DNA of 64,000 nucleotides from a bacterium (GCA_021815445.1 JAKAGM010000002.1:307720-371719), one strand, 5' to 3'; numbered from the stretch's first letter, positions 741 to 16,979 are shown. Notes: generated by a model not told the origin, from the sequence alone. A program made the numbers and translations.

Positions 741-3464
741 ATGAATGGGAACGCCGAATTTCCAGGGGTAACTCTGGACGATATCAGGCGCGTCCCCAAT
801 CCGACTCCTGCGTTTTGGAGTTGGATGTGGGATGCGTTCGCTAACGGCCGGCTTGATATTGCCGTGCAAGCGGCACTCAGCGCCGGACAGGCAACGGGTG
901 TCGAAAGCGCCCTATCGTTTTTGCAGGAATTGGGGAGCCGCTGTCAGGGCGAACCTTCAGCCGTGCACGTCGCGGACATTCAAAGGAAGCGACATTCCTC
1001 TCGGCATACCAGTACGCTACAGAAGATGTTAGGGGCGCCTACCTGGGCGAAGGATCCGCAGCTTATCTTAGGAGCACGCGGTCACGCCGTAGCCTCAGCA
1101 CTTTTGCGAGGAGCATACGATTCACATCGTAGTTCTTCCAAACATTACAAAGGTCCAGCCGGACAGCTTTCGTTATTTCCTCCCTTTGTTGATGTACCAC
1201 CCGGCGGGCAAACCAGACTTTTTTCTGGACCAGCCAGTTATAGTGAGCCACGGAATCCTCAAGGCGTCCGTCGGGCATCGTACCCAGTATTGATTCACCG
1301 CATCGAAAAGCACTGGGACGTCATTCGTAGGCTTATCGAGAATGGTGATCTCAACGCTTGGCGGACACGCAAAGGTGTAGTCCACAGGCTTGAACAAGCA
1401 ATCGAACAGATTGTCGGTGATCCGATCAACAAGCTCTGGCGAGAAGGGTGGGATCCCAGCGGCAACCTCGTTGTCCTCACCATCTTAAGCTGGGCGGCGA
1501 TGATTATCTCCCGCGGTCTGCAACGAATTCCCCACGCACTTTTTACTGAGATTGGAGTTCTCGGACAGCAGCATGGTTTGGGCGGCGGACGGATTGACGC
1601 AATTGAAGTGACTAGTATCAACGGTAAAAATCCGACTCCGTACCAGCAGAGGCTGCTTGGGATTCTCAGCAAAGGGCATTATCGATCCACAGGCCATTTG
1701 ATGAGAGTGCTCCTGGGGAATTTCCGCAACCCGGAGATCGTCGTTATCGACTGGAAATTTTTAGTCGGTGACATGATGAGTCGCGGATCCCAGCCTGATT
1801 TGCGCGCTCTTTGCGCCTCGCCCTTGTCTCACCACGAGGACCAGATGAGACGGTATTTAACGCTTATCCAGCTTGACTACCATCTCACTATTCGTCACCC
1901 CGAGCTCTGGCAGACAAATGAATTCTCGTTGCACGGGGAGCTTCATTACATCTTTCCGCACTGCAAACCTGTCGTTCACAACGTATCCATGACGCCCCAG
2001 GAGCTCGAGCAGTGGTTTGCGAATTCTGTGGCGCTTCGATGGTCGGCTGTCCAACGCCGAGCAATAGTACGCGTGGTAGACAACTTCATTATGGGAACGC
2101 TCGTCGGATTGCTCAACGGCCGTCCGCGGAAAAGAAACGGTACCCTGCACAACGGTGAAGCCGGTGAGCAGATTGAGCTCATACCAGCAGAGCCGCGAGT
2201 AACAGCTGCAACCATCGTTGAGCGAACTCAGGATTCCCACAGGAGGTTTGTTGATGAACATCAGATCATAGAGATTGTCGAGGAAAGACCATCGGGACAG
2301 GTCATCGAAATGCGACTGGATCGTCTTATGGAATGCGTCAGCCAGGGGTCTGTCTCAACGTTCGGGTTCTCCGCAGCACGTGGCGGAAAAATCCAATGTC
2401 TCATGCCTGGTCATCGGGACTCCACTTTCTCCCTGCAGGTGTATCTCGCTGATTTCCGTCCGCATTTTCACTGTTTCGGATGCGGGGCACACGGAAAAAT
2501 TGCGAGTGAATCAATTTCTCGCGAGTTTGCCCTTGCGTTCATTGCGAATCACCAAACTGACGCGCGTACAATTCAGCCGGTGACCAGCTCCCGACTGCCG
2601 GTCATTCCTGAAGAGCACCACCGTATCATGTCGTGCGCGCAAAAACTGCTTTCAGGAAATTTCTGGAACAGTGAGGGAGAGAGATACCTTGTGCAGACCC
2701 GCAAACTTGATGTTCAGCTCGCGTTTGAAAAGGGCGCGGGCTACGCCGATAGTCGGTTCATTTGCGCTCTCCTGGAGGAAGGGCTGACAGTTGATGAGCT
2801 GATCGTCTACGGATTCGTCGGTATTTCGCGCTCGGTATCCAGCCGACACGGACTAGCGCCGCTTCTGTTTGATCGCGGTTTCAAGCTTAACGAGATCAAG
2901 CGCCCGCTCCCCGGTTCAACTTCTGGGAAACCTATCTGGGGGATGCCGTATTCAACCCTTAACAACCGCGTCACCTTTCCGTTGACGCTTGAGGGGAGGG
3001 TTACCAATATCTATGGCCGGGCGGCGTACCGATGCGATAGAAGATTCTCGCATAGGAAGCTCTCGACCGAAAAGACAAAAGTTCCCCAAGGCGGATTCCA
3101 CATGGAAGCGCTCGAGGGAGAGGAAGGCGAGGTCGTAATCTCCGAAGGTGCGATTGATGCACTATCGCTCATCGAGCTCGGATGGCCCCGATCGCTGGCG
3201 ATGATAGGCGTCAGTAATACTGCCATCATCCGCGTCATGGCGCGGTCGCAGCGGAATTTCGCTATAGCGTTAGATAACGACGATACGGGAAGGAGGGAGA
3301 CAGCGAAGCTTGTAGAGCGACTCCGGGGCTTCGGATGGAAAGGCCAATCGCGCGACTTCACGGGCGAGTTTGTCCGACAACATCATGATCGCCAGTTCAA
3401 GGATTACAATGATTGGCTTATTGCTACCCGACTGCCGGCACCCGACGATGATCCGCCCTTTTAA
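741..3464 (+). CDS. DnaG-type primase (CHC2 zinc finger + TOPRIM) with a ~500-aa N-terminal extension of unknown function
   Basis: Primase zinc-binding motif CLMPGHRDSTFSLQV...HFHCFGCGAHGKI. A TOPRIM follows: VVISEGAIDALSL...FAIALDNDDTGRRE. The N-terminal half has no motif I recognise, apart from a possible PD-(D/E)xK-like pair (GRIDAIEV ... VVIDWKF). Confidence 0.6.
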   Translation: MNGNAEFPGVTLDDIRRVPNPTPAFWSWMWDAFANGRLDIAVQAALSAGQATGVESALSFLQELGSRCQGEPSAVHVADIQRKRHSSRHTSTLQKMLGAPTWAKDPQLILGARGHAVASALLRGAYDSHRSSSKHYKGPAGQLSLFPPFVDVPPGGQTRLFSGPASYSEPRNPQGVRRASYPVLIHRIEKHWDVIRRLIENGDLNAWRTRKGVVHRLEQAIEQIVGDPINKLWREGWDPSGNLVVLTILSWAAMIISRGLQRIPHALFTEIGVLGQQHGLGGGRIDAIEVTSINGKNPTPYQQRLLGILSKGHYRSTGHLMRVLLGNFRNPEIVVIDWKFLVGDMMSRGSQPDLRALCASPLSHHEDQMRRYLTLIQLDYHLTIRHPELWQTNEFSLHGELHYIFPHCKPVVHNVSMTPQELEQWFANSVALRWSAVQRRAIVRVVDNFIMGTLVGLLNGRPRKRNGTLHNGEAGEQIELIPAEPRVTAATIVERTQDSHRRFVDEHQIIEIVEERPSGQVIEMRLDRLMECVSQGSVSTFGFSAARGGKIQCLMPGHRDSTFSLQVYLADFRPHFHCFGCGAHGKIASESISREFALAFIANHQTDARTIQPVTSSRLPVIPEEHHRIMSCAQKLLSGNFWNSEGERYLVQTRKLDVQLAFEKGAGYADSRFICALLEEGLTVDELIVYGFVGISRSVSSRHGLAPLLFDRGFKLNEIKRPLPGSTSGKPIWGMPYSTLNNRVTFPLTLEGRVTNIYGRAAYRCDRRFSHRKLSTEKTKVPQGGFHMEALEGEEGEVVISEGAIDALSLIELGWPRSLAMIGVSNTAIIRVMARSQRNFAIALDNDDTGRRETAKLVERLRGFGWKGQSRDFTGEFVRQHHDRQFKDYNDWLIATRLPAPDDDPPF

Positions 3465-3581: not shown

Positions 3582-3620
3582 TTGACGTTTATTCTTTTGT
3601 GTACTACCCTGTGTAGTAGG
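3582..3620 (+). promoter_or_regulatory. Promoter with BlaI/CopY-type operator dyad (copy 1 of 3)
   Basis: TTGACG, a 17-nt spacer, then TACCCT. The -10 region is overlapped by the inverted repeat TACTAC-cctgt-GTAGTA. A 23-nt core, TGTACTACCCTGTGTAGTAGGCA, is identical to the site at 7783. Confidence 0.65.
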
Positions 3621-3651: not shown

Positions 3652-4038
3652 ATGGGCAAAAAGTCGTTATCCACAACCGTAATTGTCGCATTTGTTCTTG
3701 CGTCTCTTTTGAGCCCTATTTTTCTCGCCTCATGCTCACTGGGCGCGGGGCACGATATAGTCATGAGGACTATCGGAATGAGTTGTTCGACAGAACTGCT
3801 CCGTCACCTCACTAAATTACAGGGGATATTTCTTGCATTTGCCATAAGCTTGGTACTGGCTATTCTCGCACCATATTTCGTACGTTCCGTAGATGATGAG
3901 AGTGAACTGACGCGTACACGACAAATATTTTTTTCTTTTCGGGCTTTTTCACACAACATGAAATTTTTTGACGCTCTTCGCCTAGCTTTTGCAGAGGGGG
4001 TCATCGGCGCAAAACGCTTCGACACACTGGCGGTCTAG
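3652..4038 (+). CDS. Hypothetical small membrane protein, first gene after operator 1
   Basis: ORF with two predicted hydrophobic helices. No recognisable motif. Confidence 0.4.
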   Translation: MGKKSLSTTVIVAFVLASLLSPIFLASCSLGAGHDIVMRTIGMSCSTELLRHLTKLQGIFLAFAISLVLAILAPYFVRSVDDESELTRTRQIFFSFRAFSHNMKFFDALRLAFAEGVIGAKRFDTLAV

Positions 4039-4169: not shown

Positions 4170-4772
4170 ATGAAAAAGAAACACTTCTATCTTTCGCTTG
4201 TTATGGTTATCGTCGCTGTCGGGATTTTAACCGCTGTCATTTCTTCGGGCAAAGGAAAGATAGGAAGCGTGGAGAGCTCCTCAGAAGTGTCGGGCAATAT
4301 ACAGTTTGAGAATGCAATCGGTAAGCGGGCGCCGGATTTTGAGCTTGAAAATACCAACGGCGCCAAGGTCAGTCTCAAACAGCTTCGGGGAAAGGCCATC
4401 GTCCTCTTCTTTAACGAAGGAAGCATGTGCTATCCGGCGTGTTGGAATCAGGTTAAAGAGCTCGCCGCCGACCAACGACTGAACAATGATCAGATTCAGG
4501 CTTACTCCATTGTCGACGAGTCAAAAGGCGCGTGGCAAAGCATCATGAAGAAGCAGCCGGAATATTCGACTGATAAAATGTTGTTTGATACCTCGCGGAA
4601 AGTATCTCTGGCGTATGATGTTCTTTCGCTTCCTTCCTCGATGCATAAAGGAGCATTTCCGGGACACACCTACATTGTGATAGATAAAGAGGGGATAATC
4701 CGCTACGTGCTTGACGATCCGAGCATGGCAATCCGCAACGACCAGATTCTGGCCGAGGCACAAAAGATCTAA
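4170..4772 (+). CDS. Membrane-anchored thioredoxin-like thiol:disulfide oxidoreductase (TlpA/ResA/redoxin family)
   Basis: Start MKKKHFYL, then an N-terminal TM. The motif FELENTNGAKVSLKQLRGKAIVLFFNEGSMCYPAC carries a CxxC-type redox pair in a thioredoxin fold. Confidence 0.75.
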   Translation: MKKKHFYLSLVMVIVAVGILTAVISSGKGKIGSVESSSEVSGNIQFENAIGKRAPDFELENTNGAKVSLKQLRGKAIVLFFNEGSMCYPACWNQVKELAADQRLNNDQIQAYSIVDESKGAWQSIMKKQPEYSTDKMLFDTSRKVSLAYDVLSLPSSMHKGAFPGHTYIVIDKEGIIRYVLDDPSMAIRNDQILAEAQKI

Positions 4773-4786
4773 CCCGTACTTCCCCT

Positions 4787-5683
4787 ATGGATCTTCTTAT
4801 CTCATCATCACTGATTACCGCATTTCTTGCCGGTGTTGCCGCGCTCTTCGCCCCCTGTTGCATTACCGTGCTCTTGCCCGCGTACCTCGCCTCGATATTC
4901 AAAGAAAAGCGCACGGTCTTTCTGATGACGTTTGTGTTTTTTCTCGGGCTGTTGACCATCTTCTTGCCGCTCGGGCTCGGATTCGCGGGTCTCGGGAAAT
5001 TTCTGACGCGAAACCATACGTGGGTCTTTATCGGGGGAAGCATTATTATGTTCGCGCTCGGAACCATGATATTGCTGGGCAAGCATATTTCCCTTCCTGT
5101 CCACCTGCCATCGACGAAGATTACCAATACCGGATCGGTGTATCTGCTCGGTATCTTTTCTGGAATAGCCACAGTATGTTGCGCGCCGGTGCTGGCAGGA
5201 ACACTTACCTTGTCTGTCCTGCCCGGGTCGGTGCTATGGGGAGGCGTATATGCGGTCGTGTATGTACTGGGCATGGTGATCCCGCTCTTCGTCATCGCCT
5301 TCTTCCTTGATGAAACACATGCAATAAAGAAATTGAAGATTTTCCGGGCTACGATGTCGTATTCCATCGGTGCGCGACAGGTGCATTTACGCATCGCCGA
5401 TCTTATTTCAGGTTTTACCTTCCTTCTTATGGGTGTCGTCACGGTGATTGTCGCGATAAAGAATCCTTCCGGCGGAATGGTCTTTTCGGGATCTGCTCTG
5501 CAGACAGCAGTCAATATCACAGCCTCGCAGATTACCGACGCGCTTTCACGCACCTCAGGCTCGGTTCCCGCATTCGCCTGGCTGATCGCCGTAGGCCTCA
5601 TTATTCTCGGTATTGTCGTCTATGCATGGAAAAGGTCGCATGATCCGTTAGCTGACAGCACGAAAGGAGGTGAAGAATTATGA
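4787..5683 (+). CDS. DsbD/CcdA-superfamily polytopic membrane protein with vicinal Cys-Cys motifs; a possible metal or thiol transporter
   Basis: FAPCCITVLLPAYL and TVCCAPVLAG occupy the two positions where CcdA has single Cys residues. Multi-TM protein. The stop overlaps the next start. Confidence 0.6.
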   Translation: MDLLISSSLITAFLAGVAALFAPCCITVLLPAYLASIFKEKRTVFLMTFVFFLGLLTIFLPLGLGFAGLGKFLTRNHTWVFIGGSIIMFALGTMILLGKHISLPVHLPSTKITNTGSVYLLGIFSGIATVCCAPVLAGTLTLSVLPGSVLWGGVYAVVYVLGMVIPLFVIAFFLDETHAIKKLKIFRATMSYSIGARQVHLRIADLISGFTFLLMGVVTVIVAIKNPSGGMVFSGSALQTAVNITASQITDALSRTSGSVPAFAWLIAVGLIILGIVVYAWKRSHDPLADSTKGGEEL

Positions 5684-6300
5684 AAGTGAAATACATTTTG
5701 AATGGAATTATATTCATCTATGCGTTCTTTTTTGTCGTCTTGAACGGGTTTCTGCTTGCCAGCACAGCCGTCATGGCGACCACCGCGATGGTGTCGCCAT
5801 CCCCAACAACTACGCAAACACAGCAGTCGCAAGGTCCCACGAATGCGCAGGTAGCTTCTGTCGTTGCCCAAGTTATCCCTGCGGGCATCCCGCCGGTGTA
5901 CGGATCGGAGCTCAATGTGAATTTCTCGAATCCTGTTGCGAGTCTGACTATCCTTGACGGCTATGACCGAGGCGCAAATAAAATTGATCTTCAGGGCGAT
6001 GCGCTCGCGCGATACATCAAGATAGCAATGAAAACGGCCTGTGAATTCTGTTGCGGAGCAAAAACGCTCGTGTTCAAAGATGGCAGTCCGGCATGCGGAT
6101 GCGCCCATTCAGCGGCAATGCGCGGCGTTGCCAAGTACTTGATCCAAAAACACGGCACTGAATTCACCGATGAGCAAATTCTGACTGAAGTGAATAAGTG
6201 GAAAGCGATATCGTTCCCCAAGCAGACGGTGGAGCGGGCGCTCGCGAGTGCCGGAGGGAGCAGCTCCGTAAATCTTCCCTCGCAAGTGGGCGGATGTTAA
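5680..6300 (+). CDS. Secreted Cys-rich protein ending in LPSQVGGC
   Basis: Signal peptide, a Thr/Gln-rich linker, then the cysteine cluster CEFCCGA...SPACGCAHS. The C-terminus is NLPSQVGGC. Confidence 0.5.
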   Translation: MKVKYILNGIIFIYAFFFVVLNGFLLASTAVMATTAMVSPSPTTTQTQQSQGPTNAQVASVVAQVIPAGIPPVYGSELNVNFSNPVASLTILDGYDRGANKIDLQGDALARYIKIAMKTACEFCCGAKTLVFKDGSPACGCAHSAAMRGVAKYLIQKHGTEFTDEQILTEVNKWKAISFPKQTVERALASAGGSSSVNLPSQVGGC

Positions 6301-6341
6301 CCGCCTCCAATATTCTAATATCCATAATCAATGAATAGCAT

Positions 6342-6641
6342 ATGAGCCAGATTTCCTCCCCGCACGGAGACGTGCTTCACAGACATGAGGATGCCCCGAA
6401 GGACAAGGTTGTTCAAATCCGCCTGAACCGGAGCACATTCATGAGCGGCATTTTACTTCTCTTTGCCATCGTGGTGACGGTGCAGTTCTTCCAGATCAAG
6501 GGCCTCAGGGCTCAGGTGACTAATTCCGGATCCGCACAGCAGCCGTCGGTGTCCGCCCCCGCCTCACAACAACCGGCTGCGCAACCGGCGCAGTCCTCGG
6601 GAGCGTTGCAAAACCTGCCAAGCCAGGTTGGAGGCTGTTAG
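6342..6641 (+). CDS. Small membrane-anchored Gln/Pro/Ala-rich protein ending in LPSQVGGC (alternative start 6441)
   Basis: The C-terminus QNLPSQVGGC is identical to the preceding protein's, with different codons. One TM helix (ILLLFAIVVTVQFF). Confidence 0.45.
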   Translation: MSQISSPHGDVLHRHEDAPKDKVVQIRLNRSTFMSGILLLFAIVVTVQFFQIKGLRAQVTNSGSAQQPSVSAPASQQPAAQPAQSSGALQNLPSQVGGC

Positions 6642-6645
6642 CCAT

Positions 6646-6885
6646 ATGAAGAGAGCCGAGCTAATCTTTTTTTCGCTCGTCGGACTCGTACTCCTAGTAG
6701 TGCTTGCCGCATCATTTGCCCCGCAGGCGCAGAAGTCGTTCCGCAATACCCCGGAAAACTATGCTCGCGCAAAGGCAGCGGAGGTCGCCGGCAACCCTTG
6801 TGCAACCCCGCCGGGGTACACTGATGCCCAATGGCGCCAGCATATGAGCCACCATCCGGATCAATATCCCGGCTGTCTGAAATAA
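6646..6885 (+). CDS. Small membrane-anchored His/Cys-containing protein
   Basis: TM anchor, then NPCATPPGYTDAQWRQHMSHHPDQYPGC. The two Cys and the His cluster suggest metal binding; that reading is inference. Confidence 0.4.
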   Translation: MKRAELIFFSLVGLVLLVVLAASFAPQAQKSFRNTPENYARAKAAEVAGNPCATPPGYTDAQWRQHMSHHPDQYPGCLK

Positions 6886-6889
6886 AGGT

Positions 6890-7630
6890 ATGAATCTCGT
6901 AGCCTTCCCATTTCTCTTCGGCATCCTCGCGTTCTTGTCACCCTGCATTATGCCCATGCTGCAGGTATATTTGTCCTTAGTTACCGGAACAACGATTTCC
7001 GAGCTAACGACAAAAGATCCGGATGCAGAGGTCCGCCGTAGAGTTTTGGGAAGGACTGCGTGCTTCATCCTGGGATTCAGTGTTGTATTCGTACTGGCCG
7101 GTATGTTTGCTGGTTCAGTAGGATCGTTCCTGAAGGAGAGATCGGTCGTGCTCAATTATATCGGGGGGTTGATCATCGTTCTGCTGGGCCTCAAGATGCT
7201 CGGAGTGTTCCAGATGAAATTTCTCAGCAATCTGCATCTAGAGCCGGAGCGATTTCCCTTGCTCAAGAAGGATACCATGGCTGGAGCATTCTTGGTCGGC
7301 CTCTTTTTCGCGGTAGCCTGTTCGCACTGTTTCGGACCGCTGTTGTACTCCACGCTTATCGTTGCTGCCAATACCCAGTCCGCAACCAGCGGACTCGTAG
7401 TGCTCTTGAGCTTCTCTGCAGGCTTGGCTGTTCCGTATTTTATCACTGCCGCAGCGCTGCCGAGCGTTCTCGGGATGCTTCGACGGTTCAGCGCTGCAAT
7501 TACCGTGATCATAAAGGCGAGCGGGGCGTTCCTGGTCATTTTCGGCGTATTGGTGTTCTTCAACCAGTTTCAAATTCTCGCAACGCTTCTGGGCAAGATT
7601 GTTCCATGGGGAAATATCCTTTCCCTATAA
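6890..7630 (+). CDS. ccdA: Cytochrome c-type biogenesis / thiol-disulfide electron transporter CcdA
   Basis: LSPCIMPMLQVY in TM1, then a second conserved Cys motif, CSHCFGPLL. Roughly six TM helices. Confidence 0.8.
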   Translation: MNLVAFPFLFGILAFLSPCIMPMLQVYLSLVTGTTISELTTKDPDAEVRRRVLGRTACFILGFSVVFVLAGMFAGSVGSFLKERSVVLNYIGGLIIVLLGLKMLGVFQMKFLSNLHLEPERFPLLKKDTMAGAFLVGLFFAVACSHCFGPLLYSTLIVAANTQSATSGLVVLLSFSAGLAVPYFITAAALPSVLGMLRRFSAAITVIIKASGAFLVIFGVLVFFNQFQILATLLGKIVPWGNILSL

Positions 7631-7762
7631 AGGTCGGTATGTCGCTACATATTAATCATTTACAATGACACCTATGAAAAAAATACCAGGCGGCGGAGGA
7701 TGCTGTTAGTTCTATTTGCAAAATAAATTCACAAGAGTAACTCTTAAAAAGCCAAGCATTAT

Positions 7763-7800
7763 TTGACGGCCGTTTTATTTTGTACTACCCTGTGTAGTAG
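7763..7800 (+). promoter_or_regulatory. Promoter with BlaI/CopY-type operator dyad (copy 2 of 3); autoregulatory site of the repressor operon
   Basis: TTGACG, a 17-nt spacer, TACCCT, and the dyad TACTAC-cctgt-GTAGTA. The 23-nt core TGTACTACCCTGTGTAGTAGGCA is identical to site 1. Confidence 0.7.
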
Positions 7801-7825
7801 GCACTTATCCACACACCAAAATCAT

Positions 7826-8209
7826 ATGGCCAAACCTTCATTTCACCTCCTTGGAGACCTTGAGAAGCAGATCATGGAAATTGTTTGGAAACAGGAGCAG
7901 GTTACCGTCAGAGGCGTTGTAGAAATACTCCATAAAAAGCGTGAGATTGCTTATACGACAGTCATGACAGTTATGAACCGGCTTTCCGAGAAAAAGCTGC
8001 TCACCCGAAAGGAAGACGGCGGCGCTTTTGCATATGTAGCCACCCAGAAACGGGAATTATTCATGAGTAGGGCATCCGAAAATGTTATTCGTGGGCTGTT
8101 ATCCGAGTGCGGAGAGGTGGCCATAGCCCAATTTGTTGAAGCACTCGAGGATGTTGATCCGGCGAAGTTAGCACTGCTTGAAAAAAAGATTAGGGAAAAA
8201 CGGTCATGA
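7826..8209 (+). CDS. BlaI/MecI/CopY-family winged-helix transcriptional repressor (no C-terminal Cys-rich metal-binding tail)
   Basis: N-terminal penicillinase-repressor fold (IMEIVWKQEQVTVRGVVEILHKKREIAYTTVMTVMNRLSEKKLLTRK). No CxCx4CxC tail. Confidence 0.8.
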   Translation: MAKPSFHLLGDLEKQIMEIVWKQEQVTVRGVVEILHKKREIAYTTVMTVMNRLSEKKLLTRKEDGGAFAYVATQKRELFMSRASENVIRGLLSECGEVAIAQFVEALEDVDPAKLALLEKKIREKRS

Positions 8210-9258
8210 ATAAGCGAGACAGATCTACATTTTGGTCGTTTGTCCTCTACAGCGCGAGCGGAATATTCGGTATTAGTGCCGCCGCGGTGCTTGGCGGTGC
8301 GCTCCTGCCTCATATATCTTCCTCAGTGGGAATTCTCCTCGCACGCGTGGTGCATACGTGCAGCCAATTACTTTCGACTGTTGCAGGGCGGGATATTTTC
8401 CTCAGCTCATTGAACGCGCTTATTCTGCTTTTCGTGGGAGCCTTTTTCCTGACAGGTGCTGGTCTTTTTTTCCATGCCTCGTGGAAGACTGGACGGTACG
8501 TCTCATCTTTGCGAAAAAAAATTTTTCACCTTTCGGATTCTCGAAAAAAGATGTTCAATACAATGTTTCCGTCACTTACCCTCGTCGGAGTGGATGATCA
8601 GCATCCCTTCGTAGTGAGCGCCGGTTTGTTCAAACCGAAAATATACGTCAGCGCCGGTTTGTTGACTCTCTTATCGGACGATGAGCTTGTAAGCGTTTTT
8701 AAACACGAGGAATACCATTGCAGAAATCGGGACACCGCACGTTTGTTTATCGTGCATTTTTTCAGAAAACTGTTTTGGTTCGTTCCCGGCATTTCAAAGT
8801 TTGCCGCACAGGTCCAGACACTTTTTGAAATATCAGCTGATGAGCACGCTATCCACGCACTTGGTGATGATACGGCACTCGGGAGTGCACTTGTAAAAGT
8901 ACTTCGCCACCCGTCTCATTCGGCGATACCGGAACTCATTCCGGCTTTTTCTTCGGTGAATGATCGCATTGGGCGGCTTCTAGACGCGTCCTACAAACCT
9001 TCGACACGTGCAGCCGTGGCGGTGCCGATTTTTGGGATACTATTCCTGCTTCTTTCGGTGTTCTTTGCCCGAGGCAGTTTCGCCGCACCCAATGTTGCTT
9101 TTGACGGTTTCGAATTGCATAAGATGTCCCAGTCAAGAATATGTCCACAAATTGTTCCCGAACTGCTCATGAGCGTTCCTCAGAACCGTGTCTGCGTCCA
9201 CCCGCAAAATAGTACGCAGGCGCCGTCATGCGGCGAAACACACCCTACAACTAACTAG
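8206..9258 (+). CDS. BlaR1/MecR1-like M56 integral-membrane metalloprotease (anti-repressor), lacking a penicillin-binding sensor domain
   Basis: Four TM helices. The motif HEEYH (HExxH) sits in FKHEEYHCRNRD. At 350 aa there is no room for the C-terminal BlaR sensor domain. Start overlaps the repressor gene stop. Confidence 0.75.
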   Translation: MNKRDRSTFWSFVLYSASGIFGISAAAVLGGALLPHISSSVGILLARVVHTCSQLLSTVAGRDIFLSSLNALILLFVGAFFLTGAGLFFHASWKTGRYVSSLRKKIFHLSDSRKKMFNTMFPSLTLVGVDDQHPFVVSAGLFKPKIYVSAGLLTLLSDDELVSVFKHEEYHCRNRDTARLFIVHFFRKLFWFVPGISKFAAQVQTLFEISADEHAIHALGDDTALGSALVKVLRHPSHSAIPELIPAFSSVNDRIGRLLDASYKPSTRAAVAVPIFGILFLLLSVFFARGSFAAPNVAFDGFELHKMSQSRICPQIVPELLMSVPQNRVCVHPQNSTQAPSCGETHPTTN

Positions 9259-9276
9259 AGAACATGCACTCATTAT

Positions 9277-10230
9277 ATGTCTGATACCATCACAAAAGAT
9301 ATTTGGATCCAGGGTATGCACTGTGACGCATGCGAAAAAACTATCCGCAAATCATTGGAACGCATAGGGGTAGGTGTTGAAGATATTCGTTATACTAATA
9401 ATCGTGTTGAATTACTCTATGATCCGCTGAGAGTGCCTTTCTCCCAAATTGAAGGTGCCGTCGCTGACGTCGGGTACCGCGTGCGAGAAACTCCTCCCGA
9501 GGAATCAGGTCCGCGGGAAACTTCAATTGAGCGCGCCAAAAGGGTTTTTCATTCTTTTCGAAATGACCCTGAAGCGTATCAACTGGAAAAACAAGTCATC
9601 AAAAGCACGCTCGGTACGTTGTTTATTGCGGCGGCATTAGAGTATCTCATCTATTTTATTTTCTTTTGGAACATTCAAGGATTTCTCCATACCTACGGCC
9701 AATATCTTGGGTACTTGATTGTCGGTGTCGTCGCAACAGGAGGAGCGGTAAGGCACTTACGGGCGTATCAGGGGGCCGTTTCATGCATGACAGGAATGAT
9801 GATTGGAATGACCATCGGGATGATTTCCGGCCTGCTTCTGGGGGCAGTTGTTGGCGCAACCAACGGCATGTTCGTTGGCTCTGTTTTCGGGATGGCTGTC
9901 GGTATGGCCGTCGGCGGCTGGGTAGGGGTGTGTTGTGGGATCATGGGACTCATGGAAGGCATGATGGCGGGGCTTATGGGCGGCACTATGGGCGCGATGA
10001 TCGGGGTGATGATGATTCCCGACAGACTCACGCTCTTTTTGCCGATATTCTTTGTCGCATGTCTTGCAATACTCGCAGGTCTTAGCTATATGGTGTACAA
10101 GGAGCACAAAGGCGCGCGAGACGAGGTAAAGTTGTATGGATTCTGGCCGTATACTTTTATCAATTTTGCATTCGTTCTTGCGGGAACCATCATCATCGTG
10201 TGGGGACCCAAGGCGGCATTTTTACGTTAA
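9277..10230 (+). CDS. HMA (CopZ-like) domain fused to a Met/Gly-rich polytopic membrane domain
   Basis: N-terminal GMHCDAC heavy-metal-associated motif. The membrane part is glycine-zipper/Met-rich (GMMIGMTIGMISG...GMAVGMAVGGWVGVCCGIMGLMEGMMAGLMGG) and includes a vicinal CC. Confidence 0.65.
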   Translation: MSDTITKDIWIQGMHCDACEKTIRKSLERIGVGVEDIRYTNNRVELLYDPLRVPFSQIEGAVADVGYRVRETPPEESGPRETSIERAKRVFHSFRNDPEAYQLEKQVIKSTLGTLFIAAALEYLIYFIFFWNIQGFLHTYGQYLGYLIVGVVATGGAVRHLRAYQGAVSCMTGMMIGMTIGMISGLLLGAVVGATNGMFVGSVFGMAVGMAVGGWVGVCCGIMGLMEGMMAGLMGGTMGAMIGVMMIPDRLTLFLPIFFVACLAILAGLSYMVYKEHKGARDEVKLYGFWPYTFINFAFVLAGTIIIVWGPKAAFLR

Positions 10231-10236
10231 CGAAAA

Positions 10237-10461
10237 ATGGATACTCTTACGCTTTCAATTTCGGGCATGCATTGCGCATCCTGCAGTAAACTGATCACTA
10301 TGGACCTGGAAGACATCGGCGTGACAGCCAGTATTGATCGCGACACCGGAAAGGGCAAAGTTACATTTGATCCTCAAAAAGTTTCGCAGGACCAAATACT
10401 CGATCAAATCAAAAAAAGCGGTTATCAGGCGTCAGTTATCACGGGTGGGACAGCACAATGA
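10237..10461 (+). CDS. copZ: Copper chaperone CopZ (single HMA domain)
   Basis: 74 aa with GMHCASC. Confidence 0.85.
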   Translation: MDTLTLSISGMHCASCSKLITMDLEDIGVTASIDRDTGKGKVTFDPQKVSQDQILDQIKKSGYQASVITGGTAQ

Positions 10462-11216
10462 ACGTCACTCAATTACCGCTTGCACTTTCTTTTGTCTTCG
10501 GTGTTCTTTCCATCATATCCCCCTGCGTGATAGTTTTGCTGCCCGCGTACTTGGCCACCATCACGGGGTTCAGCATCGAAGAGCTCACTTCAGCAGAACA
10601 CGAGAGCATTGTCCTTCGAAGGATACTTGGAAATGCGCTCGGGTTTATTCTCGGCTTCTTCCTGGTTTTTATCCCTCTAGGTGCGCTGATCGGTGTGGCG
10701 GCAACTGCGATAGGAAGCGCACGATCGGTTTTCGCGGTCGTCGCGGGCGTCATCGTCGTGCTCCTCGGGATGAATTTCCTGTATCCGCTCCCTTTTCTCA
10801 GGTGGATCAACACCGATGTCCGGATTCGCTGGAAACCTCGCGGCTATTCGTTCATCAGTAATATTTTCTTCGGCGCCGTATTCGCTTTTGTATGGACTCC
10901 CTGCGTTGGACCGTATCTCGTGGCTGTCACAGCTCTGGTCGGGTCGACGGGAGACATCGGCAAAGGCGTAGCGTACTTTTCTCTCTACGCACTCGGTCTG
11001 GCGATAAGCATGCTCGTATTTACTGTCTTTTACACCAAAGTGGCATTCGTGACGAATTTTCTCAAACAACACTCGCGGTCTATCCAAGTAATCAGCGGAA
11101 TTCTCCTTATCACCATCGGCATTCTCATGATATCCGACAAACTCTATCTTACCAACATTGCTATCAATAAATTCTTCGGCGGTTTCCAACCCGAATCGTG
11201 GTTTATTAATTCATAA
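10458..11216 (+). CDS. ccdA: CcdA-family thiol-disulfide transporter (second copy)
   Basis: ISPCVIVLLPAYL in TM1, with a second Cys motif TPCVGPYL. Confidence 0.8.
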   Translation: MNVTQLPLALSFVFGVLSIISPCVIVLLPAYLATITGFSIEELTSAEHESIVLRRILGNALGFILGFFLVFIPLGALIGVAATAIGSARSVFAVVAGVIVVLLGMNFLYPLPFLRWINTDVRIRWKPRGYSFISNIFFGAVFAFVWTPCVGPYLVAVTALVGSTGDIGKGVAYFSLYALGLAISMLVFTVFYTKVAFVTNFLKQHSRSIQVISGILLITIGILMISDKLYLTNIAINKFFGGFQPESWFINS

Positions 11217-11227
11217 TATACAGCACT

Positions 11228-11659
11228 ATGGCCTCACAAAAATCAGACAGTTCGCATTTTATCAGAAATATGATGATCGTCATGGGCATTGTCACTGCTC
11301 TCAGCGGTGCAGCTGCCTGGCGTCTCGGTTCACGGGCGACAATTACGCCGAGAACAAGTGACACCACGGTTGCCGACGATTTGTCCGGAAGCGCGCAAGA
11401 CGCTGTTTCTATCACCGTAGCGTCCTCAGGATATACTCCGGGGGAAATCACGGTACCTCAGGGCAAGAAAGTTCGCCTCAACCTTGTCACCAACGGCACG
11501 TACGGATGCATCCGCTCTTTTGTCATCCCGAAACTTGGGATTTCAAAAACTCTCCCGACAAGCGGCACGACAACCGTCGAGTTTACTCCGACGGAAAAGG
11601 GGACACTCGCGTTCCAGTGTTCCATGGGGATGTTCAGGGGAAATATTAAAGTCATATAA
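11228..11659 (+). CDS. Cupredoxin-like (Cupredoxin_1/EfeO-N-type) protein with N-terminal TM anchor
   Basis: C-terminal YGC...FQCSMGMFRGNIKV copper-site-like motif. Paralogous to the next gene. Confidence 0.6.
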   Translation: MASQKSDSSHFIRNMMIVMGIVTALSGAAAWRLGSRATITPRTSDTTVADDLSGSAQDAVSITVASSGYTPGEITVPQGKKVRLNLVTNGTYGCIRSFVIPKLGISKTLPTSGTTTVEFTPTEKGTLAFQCSMGMFRGNIKVI

Positions 11660-11665
11660 ATTTTC

Positions 11666-12037
11666 ATGGACCCGCGCCAACTGATTGGCATTGTTCTGAT
11701 CGCACTAGTCGTAGGGCTTTTTTTTCTGTGGCTGAGGTTCCAGCGGCGCCAAGAGCGCGCCTCAGAGAGCGGTGGTATCCAAGAGGTTACCATTCTCGTC
11801 AAGGGAGCGTACGATCCGAACGTGATTACCGCAAAGGCCGGCATACCCCTTCGTATCCATTTTAACCGGCAGGAAGATACTGACTGCTCCCGGTTTGTTA
11901 CCTTCGATACGCTCCATCTAAGAAAGAATTTAAAATCCTTTTCGACAACCGAAATCGAATTTACCCCAGAAAAAGCGGGCGAGTATCCTTTCGCATGCGA
12001 TATGGGCATGTATCAGGGAAAGTTGATCGTAAAATAG
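11666..12037 (+). CDS. Cupredoxin-like protein (tandem paralog)
   Basis: FACDMGMYQGKLIVK C-terminus with the same architecture. Single TM anchor. Confidence 0.6.
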   Translation: MDPRQLIGIVLIALVVGLFFLWLRFQRRQERASESGGIQEVTILVKGAYDPNVITAKAGIPLRIHFNRQEDTDCSRFVTFDTLHLRKNLKSFSTTEIEFTPEKAGEYPFACDMGMYQGKLIVK

Positions 12038-12046
12038 TAGAGACAT

Positions 12047-14341
12047 ATGGGACAGCAGACGACGACATTATCACTTCGGGGAATGCATTGCGCGAGTTGC
12101 GCGCAGTTGATTGAGCGCGGGCTCAAAAAGGTTCCGGGGGTGCAGCAAGCCAACGTAAATTACGGCACCGAACGAGCCCATGTAGTGTTCGACTCGGTGA
12201 CTGCCTCGGTTGATTCCTTGATTCGGGGCGTGGAGAATGTCGGGTATCATGCCAAGGAACTAAAAGAAGACCGTCAGTCGCGCCAGTCAGAAGACGACGA
12301 ACGTCGCCGGGAGATACAGAAAATCAAGACAAAATTTTTTATCAGTCTCGTCCTATCCCTCCCCGTGCTCGTGCTCAGTATGGGCATGAAGATTGTTCCC
12401 GCGATCGAAAATATACCGAATCGCGAATGGATCCAGTTTCTCTTTGCGACGCCCATTCAGTTTTGGGCCGGGTGGCAGTTCTATCGTGGATTCTGGGGGG
12501 CGCTGAAGGCCCGTACGGCGAATATGGACAGTCTCATCGCCCTCGGCACCTCCGCGGCGTATTTTTACTCCTTAGTCGTTATCCTCAAGCTTGTTGAGGG
12601 GGAAGTATACTTTGAAATAGGGAGCATTCTGATTGCATTCGTTCTCCTGGGCAAATGGCTCGAGGCGCGAGCCAAAGGCAAGACAGGAGAAGCCATCAAA
12701 AAGCTCATGGGCCTGGCGCCCACTACTGCGTTTGTTATTCGCGGCGAGAGGGAGCTGGAGATCCCGCTCGAACAGGTGGTCGTCGGGGATCATATCCGGG
12801 TGAAACCGGGGTCGAAGATTCCTGTTGACGGCATGGTTGAAGATGGCGTTTCGTCGGTTGATGAGTCAATGATAACCGGCGAAAGCATTCCAGTAGAAAA
12901 AAGCGCCGGAACGGCGGTGATCGGCGGAACTATCAATATCCACGGCTCATTCGTCTTCCAGGCGAAAAAGATTGGGAAAGAAACGTTACTTGCCGGAATT
13001 ATTAAGCTCGTTGAGGATGCTCAGGCGTCCAAGGCGCCCATTCAGCGTTTTGCCGACCGGGTATCGGCGTATTTTGTCCCTATAGTCATCGCGCTCGCGC
13101 TCATTACCTTTCTGTCATGGTATTTTATCGCGGCCCAGCCGTTTGTTTCCAGTTTACTCGCGTTTGTCGCCGTGCTAGTCATCGCCTGCCCCTGCGCGCT
13201 CGGTCTCGCCACTCCTACGGCAATTATTACTGGCACGGGACTGGGCGCGTCGCGGGGCATTCTCATCAAAGGCGGTGAAGCGCTTGAAGCAGCCAGAAAA
13301 ATCGACACGGTGGTTTTTGACAAGACGGGGACCCTGACGATAGGCAAGCCGCTGGTCACGGATATTGTCCAGCTTGAAGAAGGCCAGAAAGCGCTCACCT
13401 TTTTTATTCATCAGATGGCCGGCACGCATATTGAAGATATCCTGCTCCAGGTCGCCGCATCACTCGAGGCGCAATCGGAGCACTCGTTGGCTGAGGCCAT
13501 TGTCAAAGAGGCAAAAGTTCGAAAATTGCCGTTATTTGCCATACGGAATTTTTCCGCGCAGCCGGGCAGAGGAGTGTATGCTGAAATTGTTCCCGCAGAC
13601 GGCGTTACATCAACAGTCAATGTACTTCTAGGTAATAGGAAGATGATGGTCGAAGCGGGGATACCTCTAGGTTCCGCCGAATCCTTTATGCATGCACTTG
13701 AGGAACAGGGCAAGACAGTGATGGCGGTCGGCATACTCGGCCAGCAGGGATCTACGCATGTTGTTGCGGGGCTTATCGCCGTCTCTGATGTTCCAAAGCA
13801 GGATGCCAGAGAAGCGGTTCGCGCGCTCACAGAACGTGGAATTTCTGTCGCGATGATTACCGGCGACAACAGGAGGACCGGAGAGGCTATCGCGCGGCAG
13901 CTGGGCATCACCCGAGTTCTGGCCGAAGTATTGCCCCAGGACAAAGCCGACGAAGTAAAGAAACTTCAGGCAGAAGGGAAGAAAGTGGCTTTTGTCGGGG
14001 ATGGAGTCAATGATGCTCCGGCGCTTGCCTCGGCAGATCTCGGCATTGCCATCGGCTCGGGGACTGACGTTGCGCTCGAGGCCGGGCAGATTGTGCTGGT
14101 AAAAAACAATTTACTCGATGTCGTCAGAGCTATCCGACTTTCTCAGGCGACGTTTCGTAAAATTGTCCAAAATCTTTTTTGGGCCCTTATCTACAATGTC
14201 GCCGGCATACCCATCGCGGCAGGGGCATTGTACGGGGTGCTCGGATGGCAACTGAGACCCGAAATTGCCGGAGCGGCTATGGCTCTGTCCAGTGTCTCTG
14301 TTGTGACAAATTCTCTTCTTTTAAAGCGATTTCGAGCATAA
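12047..14341 (+). CDS. copA: Copper-translocating P1B-type ATPase CopA
   Basis: N-terminal HMA (GMHCASC), CPC motif ([11 protein letters not shown]), DKTGTLT phosphorylation site and the GDGVNDAP hinge. Confidence 0.95.
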
Positions 14342-14375: not shown

Positions 14376-14412
14376 TTGACCTGCGTGAATATTCTACTAC
14401 AATAAGTAGTAG
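14376..14412 (+). promoter_or_regulatory. Promoter with BlaI/CopY-type operator dyad (copy 3 of 3), upstream of the DsbA-like genes
   Basis: TTGACC, a 16-nt spacer, then TACAAT. It is overlapped by CTACTAC-aataa-GTAGTAG, which has the same half-sites and 5-bp spacing as sites 1 and 2 but a different spacer sequence. Confidence 0.6.
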
Positions 14413-14426
14413 CTCTTTGAAAGATA

Positions 14427-15209
14427 TTGCGTCTAAAGGGCAAGTTACCTTCCTTATGGTATACTGGAATCATTATGGCTGGTATCCCACCACTAGAACC
14501 CGTAAAAAAGCCGTTGGTACTCCGATGGTGGTTTTTGATGACAGTTTTTTTGGCCGTAATAATAGCCGGTTCGTTTGGGATGTTAGTGTATGAAAATTAC
14601 CGCGCCCTCCAGAAAGGTGAGATAAGCATTGCAGGAGGTATCACGCGGGATCCGAACGCTACGGCGACAAATGTAGCGATTGCCAATGTGGTCACTGATG
14701 ACGACCCTTCTCTTGGTCCTAAAGATGCCAAGGTGGTCGTAGTCGAGTTTGCCGATTTTCAATGTCCGTATTGTCAGGAGGCATTTCCCATTATCAGGGA
14801 GCTTACGGTGAAGTACGCAGACAAGGTCCGGTTTATTTATCGTGATTTTCCCGTGGGCAGTGTGCACCCGGACGCCCAAAACGCGGCAATAGCAGCGTCG
14901 TGCGTAGCCAAGCAGGATCAGGTGAAGTTTTGGCTCTATCATGACAAACTTTACCTGAACCAGGAAGATTTAGGCCAGGACGCACTCTTAAGATACGCCC
15001 TGCAGGTAGGCGCAGACGAACAGAAGTTTCTCGCATGCATCAATGATTCGAGCGTTGCCCAGGAGGTTCAAAATGATTATCAGGACGGCATTATCGCCGG
15101 CGTGACGGGGACTCCGACATTCTTTATAGACGGCAGGCGGGTACCGGGGGTGATCCCTCTCGATATCTTCACAAAGGCGCTTGATTCCGAACTTTCCAAA
15201 CAACAATAA
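14427..15209 (+). CDS. Membrane-anchored DsbA-like thiol:disulfide oxidoreductase
   Basis: FADFQCPYCQEAFP CxxC motif in a DsbA fold. N-terminal TM. Alternative start at 14475. Confidence 0.75.
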   Translation: MRLKGKLPSLWYTGIIMAGIPPLEPVKKPLVLRWWFLMTVFLAVIIAGSFGMLVYENYRALQKGEISIAGGITRDPNATATNVAIANVVTDDDPSLGPKDAKVVVVEFADFQCPYCQEAFPIIRELTVKYADKVRFIYRDFPVGSVHPDAQNAAIAASCVAKQDQVKFWLYHDKLYLNQEDLGQDALLRYALQVGADEQKFLACINDSSVAQEVQNDYQDGIIAGVTGTPTFFIDGRRVPGVIPLDIFTKALDSELSKQQ

Positions 15210-15356: not shown

Positions 15357-16136
15357 ATGGAGAAAGAACAAAAGATAACTCACCAATCAGAGGACGGTAT
15401 TTTCCAGGCGTCGCCAAAAGTGACGTTTTACTTGGGATTGCTGTCGGGTATCACGCTTGTCAGCGTCATCGGTTTCTTTTTAACCTTTTCGATGCTACGA
15501 AGCGGATCTGTCGTGACAAAGAACACAAACTCAGGAACCAATGGGACGGTCGCCGGTGCAGATACAAACACGAATACTGCTGCTGCTCCTGCAGCTGCCC
15601 CGACAGCACCCGTTGATATCAAACTCACCGCTGATGACCACGTGAAGGGTAATGCAAATGCCAAGGTAACTCTGGTAGAATATTCTGACTTCCAGTGCCC
15701 GTTTTGCGCTACAGTCAGACCAACATTGGATCAAGTTATGAAGGACTATGGGGATAAAGTAAAACTTGTGTATCGCAATTATCCTCTGACTTCACTGCAT
15801 CCGATGGCCCAAAAGGCGGCAGAAGCATCAGAGTGCGCATCTGAGCAAGGGAAATTCTGGGAGATGCACGATAAACTCTTCGACCAGAATACTGCGGGCA
15901 CGATGAGCGTGGATAACTTCAAGAAAGCTGCCGGAGAGTTAAAACTCAACCAGAGCCAGTTTGATACCTGTCTCGACACAGGAAAGTATGCGAGCAAGGT
16001 TACAGCCTCCGAGACCGAGGGGACTTCATTCGGCGTGCAAGGCACCCCGGCGACTTTCGTCAACGGCGTGCTTATTTCCGGTGCGGTGCCATATGCGCAG
16101 TTTAAGACTGCGATAGACAACGCATTGAGCTCCTGA
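15357..16136 (+). CDS. Membrane-anchored DsbA-like thiol:disulfide oxidoreductase (paralog)
   Basis: YSDFQCPFCATVRP. An Ala/Thr-rich linker follows the TM anchor. Confidence 0.75.
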   Translation: MEKEQKITHQSEDGIFQASPKVTFYLGLLSGITLVSVIGFFLTFSMLRSGSVVTKNTNSGTNGTVAGADTNTNTAAAPAAAPTAPVDIKLTADDHVKGNANAKVTLVEYSDFQCPFCATVRPTLDQVMKDYGDKVKLVYRNYPLTSLHPMAQKAAEASECASEQGKFWEMHDKLFDQNTAGTMSVDNFKKAAGELKLNQSQFDTCLDTGKYASKVTASETEGTSFGVQGTPATFVNGVLISGAVPYAQFKTAIDNALSS

Positions 16137-16148
16137 GACCACTTTAAG

Positions 16149-16979
16149 ATGATTTTTGGAAGCGCCCTACCGAATCCGATCGCGTTGTCGGTGGGCGCTT
16201 TTGGTATTCGGTGGTACGCGCTTATCATTGTAAGCGCTATAGTAGCCGGGTTTAGCATCACGCGAAGGATGGCGCGCCAACAAGGAATCCAGGATGAAAC
16301 TGTGTGGGATATTCTGCTCTTCACGATTCCCGCGGCAATTATTTTCGGCAGATTGGCTTTTGTGCTAAGTCACCTTCCTCTCTACTATACGTTTAAAGAT
16401 ACCCTAAAAATTTGGGAAGGCGGCATTTCGAGCCACGGAACTATATTGGGAGGTTTGCTGGTCATTGTACTCATCGCATGGAAGCGACGAATTTCGTTTT
16501 GGATGCTTATGGACATCATTGTTCCCGGCGCCGTGCTCGCACAAGCGATAGGGAGGTGGGGCAACTACATGAATCAAGAGGCATTCGGCCCGCCGACAAA
16601 CCTGCCGTGGGCTGTCCCTATCCAGCCCTCTCTGCGGCCGGATAGATACGCTAACTTCGATTACTTCCATCCCACCTGGCTCTATGAGTCGATCTGGAAT
16701 CTCGTCGTTTTTGTTGTCCTCCTGCTTTTGTTCAAAAGGGTTCGGCATAAACCCGGTGTCCTCGCGGCCATTTATTTCCTTTTGTATTATGCCGGGAGGT
16801 TCGTCCTAGAGTTTTTCCGACTTGATACCGTTTTTGTCGGTGCAGTACGGTTTACCACGTACCTCAGTATCGCTGTAATGATCGTCGCTGTAAGCGTATT
16901 GATTGCGCGTATGCGGAGAGCACCTCAAACATTTGAGGATATAGAGACTATTCAGACCAACAAGCAGGGCACCGCATAG
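16149..16979 (+). CDS. lgt: Prolipoprotein diacylglyceryl transferase Lgt
   Basis: Lgt signature GRWGNYMNQEAFGPPTNLPWAV in a polytopic membrane protein. Confidence 0.85.
   Translation: MIFGSALPNPIALSVGAFGIRWYALIIVSAIVAGFSITRRMARQQGIQDETVWDILLFTIPAAIIFGRLAFVLSHLPLYYTFKDTLKIWEGGISSHGTILGGLLVIVLIAWKRRISFWMLMDIIVPGAVLAQAIGRWGNYMNQEAFGPPTNLPWAVPIQPSLRPDRYANFDYFHPTWLYESIWNLVVFVVLLLLFKRVRHKPGVLAAIYFLLYYAGRFVLEFFRLDTVFVGAVRFTTYLSIAVMIVAVSVLIARMRRAPQTFEDIETIQTNKQGTA

Follow-up and report, generated by a model that had tools for sequence, protein, structure and literature searches.

Vicinal cysteine pairs mark a CcdA-like clade linked to a redoxin in copper islands: a candidate thiol relay

Here we describe a clade of CcdA-like membrane proteins that carry two adjacent cysteines in each of two membrane helices and that may work, together with a membrane-anchored redoxin encoded beside them, as a thiol relay of copper islands. 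The member studied here, open reading frame (ORF) 4787, lies in a 64,000-nucleotide stretch of a bacterial contig (GCA_021815445.1, JAKAGM010000002.1:307720-371719), hereafter the window; positions are counted from its first letter, and ORFs are named by their first nucleotide. Judged from its sequence, ORF 4787 falls within the CcdA/DsbD_TM family in a clade of its own, marked by a Cys-Cys (CC) doublet in transmembrane helix (TM) 1, a second doublet in TM4 and an outward-facing histidine, and gene linkage almost always gives it the same partner, the redoxin. That the CC-type CcdA (CC-CcdA) of copper islands passes reducing power to this extracytoplasmic redoxin as its primary job is a reading that we hold with about as much doubt as belief. 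The two genes are:

4170-4772, + strand: membrane-anchored extracytoplasmic redoxin of the peroxiredoxin/TlpA fold (AhpC-TSA, 67.2 bits), with the motif MCYP[AS]CW (CxxxC) and His159/His166.
4787-5683, + strand: CC-type CcdA/DsbD_TM protein (298 amino acids, aa), seven predicted TM helices, N-terminus out and C-terminus in, CC in TM1 and TM4, conserved His77.

The first-pass annotation of the window, made from the sequence alone, had pointed to CC doublets in three membrane or secreted proteins, and the translations place all four doublets where it put them. In ORF 4787 they are C24/C25 (LFAPCCITVL) and C131/C132 (ATVCCAPVL); in ORF 5680 (5680-6300, 206 aa) the motif CEFCCGA supplies C121, C124 and C125; and in ORF 9277 (9277-10230, 317 aa) C219/C220 form GVCCGIMG within a Met/Gly-rich hydrophobic stretch. 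The cysteine content of the window's ORF set is 1.07%, from which about 2.3 doublets would be expected per 20,215 aa, and the 821 aa of the three proteins hold four against an expectation of about 0.09. Because this excess was counted post hoc, conservation is the real test. Among 3635 scored relatives of ORF 4787, the best 120 (48-70% identity) keep both doublets in 119 cases, in the nearly invariant contexts FAPCCITVL and AT[LMIT]CCAPVL. Searched with a profile, 1.84 billion representatives of 50%-identity clusters gave 2323 matches, 139 of them at E <= 1e-30, and all four cysteines are kept and aligned in every full-length representative that carries two doublets (66/66). The six cysteines of ORF 5680, the last residue included and CEFCC among them, are invariant in 120/120 of the best of its 195 relatives, while the best 120 of 626 relatives of ORF 9277 keep C219 in 104 and C220 in 114. 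Absence of the doublets from orthologues, which the annotation had named as evidence that would count against it, is thus not what the families display.

ORF 4787 is a marginal member of the Pfam family DsbD_TM (PF02683; 29.5 bits against a cut-off of 27.1). The same model matches 30/32 members of the CC clade, and the Pfam scan gave no DsbD_TM match for the Rhodococcus and Rubrobacter orthologues. The sole solved relative is Thermus CcdA (5vkv, E = 4e-10), on whose catalytic cysteines of TM1 and TM4 the first cysteine of each doublet, C24 and C131, is aligned, so that the doublets lie inside membrane helices. This agrees both with the earlier proposal and with the topology predicted from hydropathy and the positive-inside rule, which gives seven helices, one more than in CcdA, with the N-terminus outside and the C-terminus in the cytoplasm. 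Prolines near the cysteines (P23, P31, P134) are conserved as well. Two further proteins of the window, ORFs 6890 and 10458, had been called CcdA copies, rightly by their DsbD_TM scores of 66.2 and 49.2 bits. They match each other at 79 bits, and ORF 4787 reaches only 20.8 bits with ORF 6890 and has no reportable match to ORF 10458 in the same pairwise comparison. ORF 4787 therefore stands apart from the characterised single-Cys CcdAs, with which a firm clustering would have spoken against the earlier annotation. Its nearest single-Cys relatives appear in the profile search at E of about 1e-30 to 1e-41 or weaker, and they read SPCSA-LLPAFFAY.FKEK where the CC clade reads APCCITVLLPAYL, an alignment in which the second cysteine stems from the insertion of one residue in TM1 and from a substitution in TM4. 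The outside loop ahead of TM3 contains His77, which is present in 65/66 CC-type representatives, whereas 21 single-Cys sisters have Arg or Gln at that position.

The annotation had further held that vicinal cysteines within TM helices are the signature of metal importers of the MerT/MerF type and not of thiol-disulfide transporters. For ORF 4787, membership of the Mer type is not supported. The Mer-family Pfam models (MerT, MerC, MerE) find no match among 32 CC-clade members at E <= 1, nor in ORFs 4787, 5680 and 9277 at E <= 0.1; no MerA-like cluster occurs among the recurrent neighbour families, and no merA, merP or merR in the loci examined. One gene for an alkylmercury lyase is present in the Streptomyces locus, at its edge and about 5 kb away. 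In addition, ordinary actinobacterial CcdAs carry SPCC in TM1 (SPCCVPLVPGYL, SPCCLPLVPGYL; L163:12381-13181 and L164:4072-4842 (- strand)). The one in Rhodococcus lies directly downstream of a TlpA gene, and the one in Streptomyces is divergent from a CC-type operon whose far end holds a TlpA gene. Vicinal cysteines alone are thus not a metal-importer signature.

A scan of one genome per species yielded at least 580 confirmed CC-CcdA loci, of which 80 were retained for neighbourhood counts, mostly from the Candidate Phyla Radiation (CPR)/Patescibacteria and from DPANN archaea, with a few labelled Dehalococcoidia or otherwise. A homologue of the redoxin gene lies within 1.5 kb and on the same strand in 79/80 of them, in either gene order, and at least two natural fusions join the two proteins (P0361, 508 aa, and a 524-aa ORF in locus L051; a single-sequence AlphaFold model of P0361, with a predicted local distance difference test (pLDDT) score of 42.5, was unusable). 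The surroundings are those of copper resistance. A CopA-type ATPase is found within 8 kb in 59/80 loci, and the recurrent neighbours include CsoR (35 loci), CopZ, DUF2933, DUF3105, HMA-DsbD_2, an ICMT-family protein and several families without a Pfam match. Some clade members are themselves extended, by a C-terminal YHS domain (P0091, P0373), by DUF3105, by an HMBD recognised by motif only (P0376), by an HMBD and a P1B-ATPase (P0391, 980 aa) or by a P1B-ATPase in which no HMBD was detected (P0368, 967 aa). In 22/161 full-length members the sequence closes with a cytoplasmic soft-ligand tail or domain (YHS, HMBD, CC, CxxC, ...CH-COOH). ICMT-family methyltransferase genes occur in 13/80 loci (for example L042:5270-5920) and also in the Burkholderia operon described below (L162:8921-9580). 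Action of these enzymes on C-terminal cysteine tails was considered and rejected, as a GGC-ending ORF occurs in only 2/14 ICMT loci and the window has no ICMT gene.

The redoxin itself combines features of several families. Across 78 sequences the motifs MCYP[AS]CW and SSMH.G..PGH are invariant, and the best solved relatives are BCP-type and 2-Cys peroxiredoxins, the pneumococcal lipoproteins Etrx1/2 and ResA of B. subtilis (ResA at E = 1e-8). In the alignments to PDB sequences the second cysteine of the CxxxC falls on the peroxidatic or CxxC position, C87 takes the place of the peroxiredoxin threonine, H166 that of the catalytic arginine, and the proline of PxxxTxxC is missing. Though the AhpC-TSA fold match is strong, the Pxxx(T/S)xxC motif and the arginine are absent, and since these are the catalytic residues, a working peroxiredoxin is unlikely. 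The CxxxC and the histidine are Sco-like, whereas the orthologues of cultured bacteria have CxxC, and assignment to Sco1/SenC (PF02630) was rejected because the SCO1-SenC score of 15.8 bits falls below the cut-off of 22.8 and no Sco protein is among the 60 best PDB profile matches. Going by the residues alone, the Cys2His(Met) set resembles a copper site.

The module is present in cultured bacteria too. A tblastn search of plasmids returned 38 records, from Rhodococcus, Burkholderia, Streptomyces, Paraburkholderia, Arthrobacter, Rubrobacter, Microvirga and others, and five loci were inspected (Burkholderia, Rhodococcus, Streptomyces, Rubrobacter and Microvirga). All five hold an operon of overlapping genes in the order CC-CcdA, CxxC redoxin, glutaredoxin. 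The CcdA has the motifs LFAPCCISVMLPAYFA and ASSCCAPVLAG together with the histidine; the redoxin, labelled 'peroxiredoxin family' or 'redoxin domain', has an ordinary CxxC in EGL.CQPCW; and the glutaredoxin is a leaderless protein of 79-100 aa with C.FC, which matches PF00462 and Glrx-like in the Rhodococcus copy, the only one scanned. With a CxxC donor in the cytoplasm, a CcdA-like protein in the membrane and a CxxC acceptor outside, the operon has the layout of an electron relay. Around it, Burkholderia has CueR, DUF2933, a P-type ATPase, the ICMT protein and a PCYCGC-domain protein, with a second, canonical peroxiredoxin gene within the operon; Rhodococcus has BlaI and M56, CopC(D), DUF3105 and DUF305, the BlaI/M56 pair adjoining the module as it does in the window; and Streptomyces has HMA proteins, a heavy-metal regulator and a P-type ATPase. 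On the Burkholderia contaminans plasmid NZ_CP090638.1, RefSeq begins the CcdA gene (L162:7082-7939) too late to include TM1 and its doublet; the frame extends upstream and reads METSIFFGG...LFAPCCISV.

Directly behind ORF 4787 stand three genes for small or cysteine-rich anchored proteins:

5680-6300, + strand: N-anchored extracytoplasmic Cys-rich protein with CE[FY]CC..A...AC.CAHS.AMRG and a VGGC-COOH end; overlaps the stop of ORF 4787 by 4 nt (5680-5683).
6342-6641, + strand: small single-pass protein of 99 aa ending in LPSQVGGC-COOH, a tail identical to that of ORF 5680.
6628-6885, + strand: small anchored protein of 85 aa, conserved motif C..P.GYT...W..HMSHHP..Y..C; shares 14 nt with the end of ORF 6342.

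ORF 5680 consists of an N-terminal anchor, a linker and a helical domain, and its invariant residues are C121, C124, C125, G135, C139, C141, H143, M147 and R148 together with the C-terminal VGGC-COOH (C206). An AlphaFold2 model built from 120 sequences reached a pLDDT of 91.4 (87-89 in the tail), and Foldseek found no match to it in the PDB at E < 1 (best E = 1.4). No family member has a convincing match to a Pfam model, and the protein matches no family described in Pfam or NCBIfam and no solved fold. A Cys-thiolate metal site is plausible from the conserved residues. Proteins with similar tails are frequent: 131/2141 ORFs in 160 fetched loci end in GGC, many of them single-pass proteins of 60-130 aa with a Q.FQ(L/I) helix, a His/Met-rich linker and an [MQ][VI]GGC end, and some carry a cytoplasmic N-terminal CC (MEDCCKP, MHDCCKEK). 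Of the 80 loci with an ORF 5680 relative, 39 also encode such small proteins, frequently as the next gene downstream, and we infer these, together with ORF 5680, to be extracytoplasmic Cys-based copper-binding or hand-off proteins. The neighbours of the ORF 5680 relatives include the ORF 6628 family in 14/39 loci and CopA in 13/39. The commonest neighbour (17/39) is a 153-aa membrane protein with M..CC.H, which is absent from the window; its family (L075:7990-8451 and 49 other unique sequences) has no Pfam match and shares the pattern W...GFG.Q...M..CC.H...P..G. A longer version of the ORF 5680 domain, YRPCCxNS...DCNHG.A.LG, is present in 30 CC-CcdA loci and adjoins a P-type ATPase in Burkholderia. 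The VGGC end resembles a lipobox, and lgt lies at 16149-16979 of the window, after the DsbA genes, and follows the CcdA-redoxin-glutaredoxin operon in Rubrobacter (L165:6893-7744). The speculation that VGGC serves as a C-terminal lipobox for Lgt was set aside, as the genes are not linked (lgt in 3/80 CC-CcdA loci and 0/80 ORF 5680 loci).

We propose that ORF 4787 would be the membrane component of a thiol relay dedicated to the copper island, where the gene context suggests control by copper. Reducing equivalents would pass from the cytoplasm through ORF 4787 to the adjacent membrane-anchored redoxin outside, the cytoplasmic donor presumably being the glutaredoxin-like protein where the operon encodes one and thioredoxin otherwise. 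The redoxin would then keep extracytoplasmic Cys-based copper-handling proteins reduced during copper stress; within this operon the Cys-rich ORF 5680 protein and the small VGGC-tail proteins are candidate clients, and the envelope might so be protected as it is against copper by ScsB/ScsC-D or DsbD/DsbC. The second cysteine of each doublet and the outward histidine may tune the relay or bind Cu(I) transiently.

CcdA homology, an obligate thioredoxin-fold partner, natural fusions and the glutaredoxin operon all point to such a reductive relay, and the copper setting fits the established requirement for reduction of the DsbD and Scs type when copper is a stress (PMC10907172). Several observations weigh against it. 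A glutaredoxin gene is present in only 2/80 of the CPR/DPANN loci, and four invariant intramembrane thiols with a clade-specific histidine are more than the known two-Cys mechanism needs. The soft-ligand tails and the two P1B-ATPase-fused representatives look more like a metal transporter than an electron carrier, and the Cys and His that replace the peroxiredoxin Thr and Arg, with the invariant Met and His, resemble a Cys2His-like copper site. CC-CcdA neighbours an ORF 5680 relative in only 4/39 loci, so that the proposed client link is weak. The four-thiol and histidine signature thus joins the metal-binding tails, the fusions to CopA and a partner rich in Cys, His and Met in pointing to copper being handled directly. 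CC-CcdA might then be a translocator of Cu(I) or another soft metal, in which a binding site made up of the four thiols and His77 is turned to either side of the membrane by the CcdA elevator and delivers Cu(I) to a Cys2His redoxin, much as Cox17 (with its CC) hands copper to Sco1 (CxxxC and His), though the latter is an analogy only. This second explanation, which we consider tentative and on balance improbable, draws on the invariance of the signature, on the YHS, HMBD, CC and CH cytoplasmic tails and the CopA fusions, and on the CxxxC, His and Met that stand in for peroxiredoxin catalytic residues. It also has precedents, since the DsbD fold is common to LysE-superfamily metal exporters and the DsbD family has been tied to mercury and copper resistance (PMC4608589), and Scs proteins bind and transfer Cu(I) (PMC10907172). 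Against it stand the lack of likeness to MerT/MerF/MerC, the CopA exporter that most loci already hold, the ordinary CxxC redoxin and the glutaredoxin of the cultured bacteria, the failure of the redoxin to qualify as Sco, and the TM1 doublets that ordinary CcdAs of actinobacteria also carry, in one case just behind a TlpA gene. The relay and the copper readings need not exclude each other, because disulfide reduction goes together with the binding or transfer of Cu(I) in ScsB and ScsC. The first-pass proposal that these proteins handle Cu(I) or another soft metal instead of shuttling electrons survives in its copper part, through the copper context, the metal tails and fusions and the co-varying His77, and meets resistance in its denial of electron transfer from the retained catalytic cysteines, the redoxin partner and the glutaredoxin operon.

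A bolder form of the copper reading would make the CC/CC/His clade a Cu(I) conduit lined with thiols, or a protein that carries electrons as well as copper, for loading a Cys2His redoxin, with the ORF 5680 domain and the [MQ]VGGC-COOH proteins as unrecognised extracytoplasmic copper carriers that use a C-terminal cysteine 'arm'; we regard this as speculative and unlikely, and if true, it would describe a system common among CPR bacteria and DPANN archaea and present also on the metal-resistance plasmids of cultured bacteria. We give little credence to extracytoplasmic peroxide detoxification, in which the redoxin would be a peroxiredoxin recycled by CC-CcdA as PprX is by ScsB in Caulobacter (PMC10907172): AhpC-TSA is indeed the redoxin's best Pfam match, BCP and 2-Cys peroxiredoxins its best PDB profile matches, and the Burkholderia operon encodes a canonical second peroxiredoxin, but the replacement of Thr/Arg by Cys87/His166, the missing proline of PxxxTxxC and a context specific to metals and not to oxidative stress all speak otherwise. 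Less probable still is that ORF 4787 is a housekeeping CcdA that serves cytochrome c maturation or disulfide reduction in general and whose extra cysteines are a neutral decoration of the lineage. Public annotation does label its relatives 'cytochrome c biogenesis protein CcdA' (and the partner 'peroxiredoxin family protein'), but the four cysteines and His77 are nearly invariant over highly diverged archaeal and bacterial clusters, two further CcdA paralogues are present in the window, and the genes sit in copper islands and on plasmids and not with cytochrome c maturation genes.

Among known systems, the Scs and DsbD systems are copper-induced reductive relays whose components bind Cu(I), use CX3C motifs and serve peroxiredoxin-like partners, and in Caulobacter ScsB recycles PprX (PMC10907172). 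ScsB/ScsC/ScsD and DsbD/DsbC likewise pair a copper-associated DsbD-family protein with thioredoxin-fold or peroxiredoxin-like partners, with CX3C; however, ScsB is a DsbD of eight TM helices that has single cysteines in these and periplasmic alpha and gamma domains besides, whereas CC-CcdA is a minimal core with doublets and no fused periplasmic domains, and the regulators near it are, unlike those of Scs, BlaI/M56, CsoR or CueR. Closest in build are the Gram-positive CcdA/ResA and CcdA/Etrx pairs (PF02683), which share the membrane fold, the catalytic cysteines in TM1 and TM4, an adjacent homologous N-anchored thioredoxin-fold partner and a two-component relay across a single membrane. The present proteins differ from them in the doubled cysteines of both helices and the clade-specific His77, in the seventh helix that brings the C-terminus of ORF 4787 into the cytoplasm, in a partner with CxxxC (CPR/DPANN) or CQPC, peroxiredoxin-like features and invariant His and Met, and in a context of copper islands instead of cytochrome c or MsrAB genes. 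With MerT/MerF/MerC the clade has in common vicinal cysteines in a TM helix and, in some members, a cytoplasmic Cys pair; sequence likeness is lacking and fold and size are different, so that the shared doublet is a resemblance only, and the MerT/MerF analogy fails as membership while being only partly apt as mechanism. Sco1/SenC shares with the redoxin a thioredoxin/peroxiredoxin-like fold, CxxxC with a histidine near the cis-Pro/Arg position, and an anchored extracytoplasmic location. HMA-DsbD_2 (PF13386), found beside CopA, joins a DsbD-superfamily domain to a cytoplasmic metal domain in copper loci and is present in related loci too, but it is another Pfam family with single-Cys motifs and, unlike CC-CcdA, without an obligate redoxin partner.

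The rest of the island, with its regulatory sites, comprises the following features:

3602-3618, + strand: operator-like palindrome TACTACCCTGTGTAGTA, before the block that runs from ORF 3652 to CcdA 6890.
3652-4038, + strand: small two-TM protein of 128 aa, the operon's first gene, no family match.
6890-7630, + strand: CcdA paralogue, SPC in TM1 and CSHC in TM4.
7783-7799, + strand: second exact copy of TACTACCCTGTGTAGTA, upstream of the BlaI-family repressor gene.
7826-8209, + strand: BlaI/MecI/CopY-family repressor (Penicillinase_R, 101.6 bits).
8206-9258, + strand: BlaR1-like M56 membrane metalloprotease with HEEYH (Peptidase_M56, 51.4 bits), no penicillin-binding sensor domain by Pfam.
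9277-10230, + strand: cytoplasmic HMA domain and Met/Gly-rich membrane domain, with a conserved His, Cys170, CC219/220 and MEGMMAG.
10237-10461, + strand: CopZ-type HMA chaperone (HMA, 41.5 bits).
10458-11216, + strand: canonical single-Cys CcdA.
11228-11659 and 11666-12037, + strand: two Cupredoxin_1 proteins (Pfam).
12047-14341, + strand: P1B-type ATPase (CopA; Pfam, HMA), with CPC, YN and MALSS motifs in the translation, which we take to be of the Cu(I) type.
14395-14411, + strand: variant palindrome TACTACAATAAGTAGTA, overlapping the -10 hexamer of a promoter-like site before the DsbA genes.
14427-15209 and 15357-16136, + strand: two DsbA-like thioredoxin-fold proteins (Pfam).

Palindromes of the form TACTAC-N5-GTAGTA number three in the window against 0.64 expected, one before each of three gene blocks, and they are probably the operator of the BlaI-family repressor at 7826-8209; they differ from the CopY box TACANNTGTA, for which the window holds 0 matches. 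The word 'regulon', which the first-pass annotation had applied to these genes, gains some support from the shared palindromes. ORF 6890 is not a plain single-Cys CcdA, as its CSHC (C144, H146, C147) shows, and it sits where related loci have the 153-aa M..CC.H protein. For ORF 9277, a role in handling Cu(I) had been suggested, and this is reasonable for an HMA domain with a Met/Cys/His-rich membrane domain in a CopZ/CopA cassette. The HMA domain (PF00403) scores 32.1 bits and keeps the CxxC cysteines C16 in 109/120 and C19 in 110/120 homologues, and the membrane domain follows the pattern H...C M.GMM.GMT.GM...GATNG...G.CCG.MG.MEGMMAG.MGG.MG, without a family match. On three unrelated contigs its relatives belong to a cassette with a CopZ-like HMA protein, Cupredoxin_1, an ArsR-type (HTH_5) or BlaI/M56 regulator and CopA, and one of these contigs repeats the window's whole second operon. 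The Cu(I)-handling role is thus well supported by context, and ORF 9277, which joins a CopZ-like domain to a membrane domain lined with Met and Cys, would be a separate component that belongs to the Cu(I) efflux cassette. The island's left edge holds, at 142-516, a gene for a plastocyanin/azurin-type cupredoxin with the type-1 copper ligand pattern H...CSFHPDM. Directly upstream of the island, 741-3464 encodes a 907-aa Toprim-domain protein, which may indicate a mobile-element or primase context, and farther along, 41457-52559 (+ strand) is a single ORF of 3700 aa.

Full-text literature searches turned up no account of the CC-type CcdA clade, of the three-gene operon or of the VGGC tail. What was already known is that a DsbD-family relay takes part in copper defence; what is new is the CC-type clade with its CC, CC and His signature, and new as well are the ORF 5680 domain and the VGGC-tail families, which have no known relatives and are here flagged as copper-linked. 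Copper tolerance of the envelope depends on DsbD-type reducing pathways, and to our knowledge only the DsbD and ScsB types have been studied among them. With at least 580 loci and thousands of protein matches, the CC type would be a third and very widespread one. Because orthologues reside on plasmids of Burkholderia, Rhodococcus and Streptomyces, its function can be tested by ordinary genetics, and the result would bear on how the minimal-genome organisms of the CPR and DPANN handle copper.

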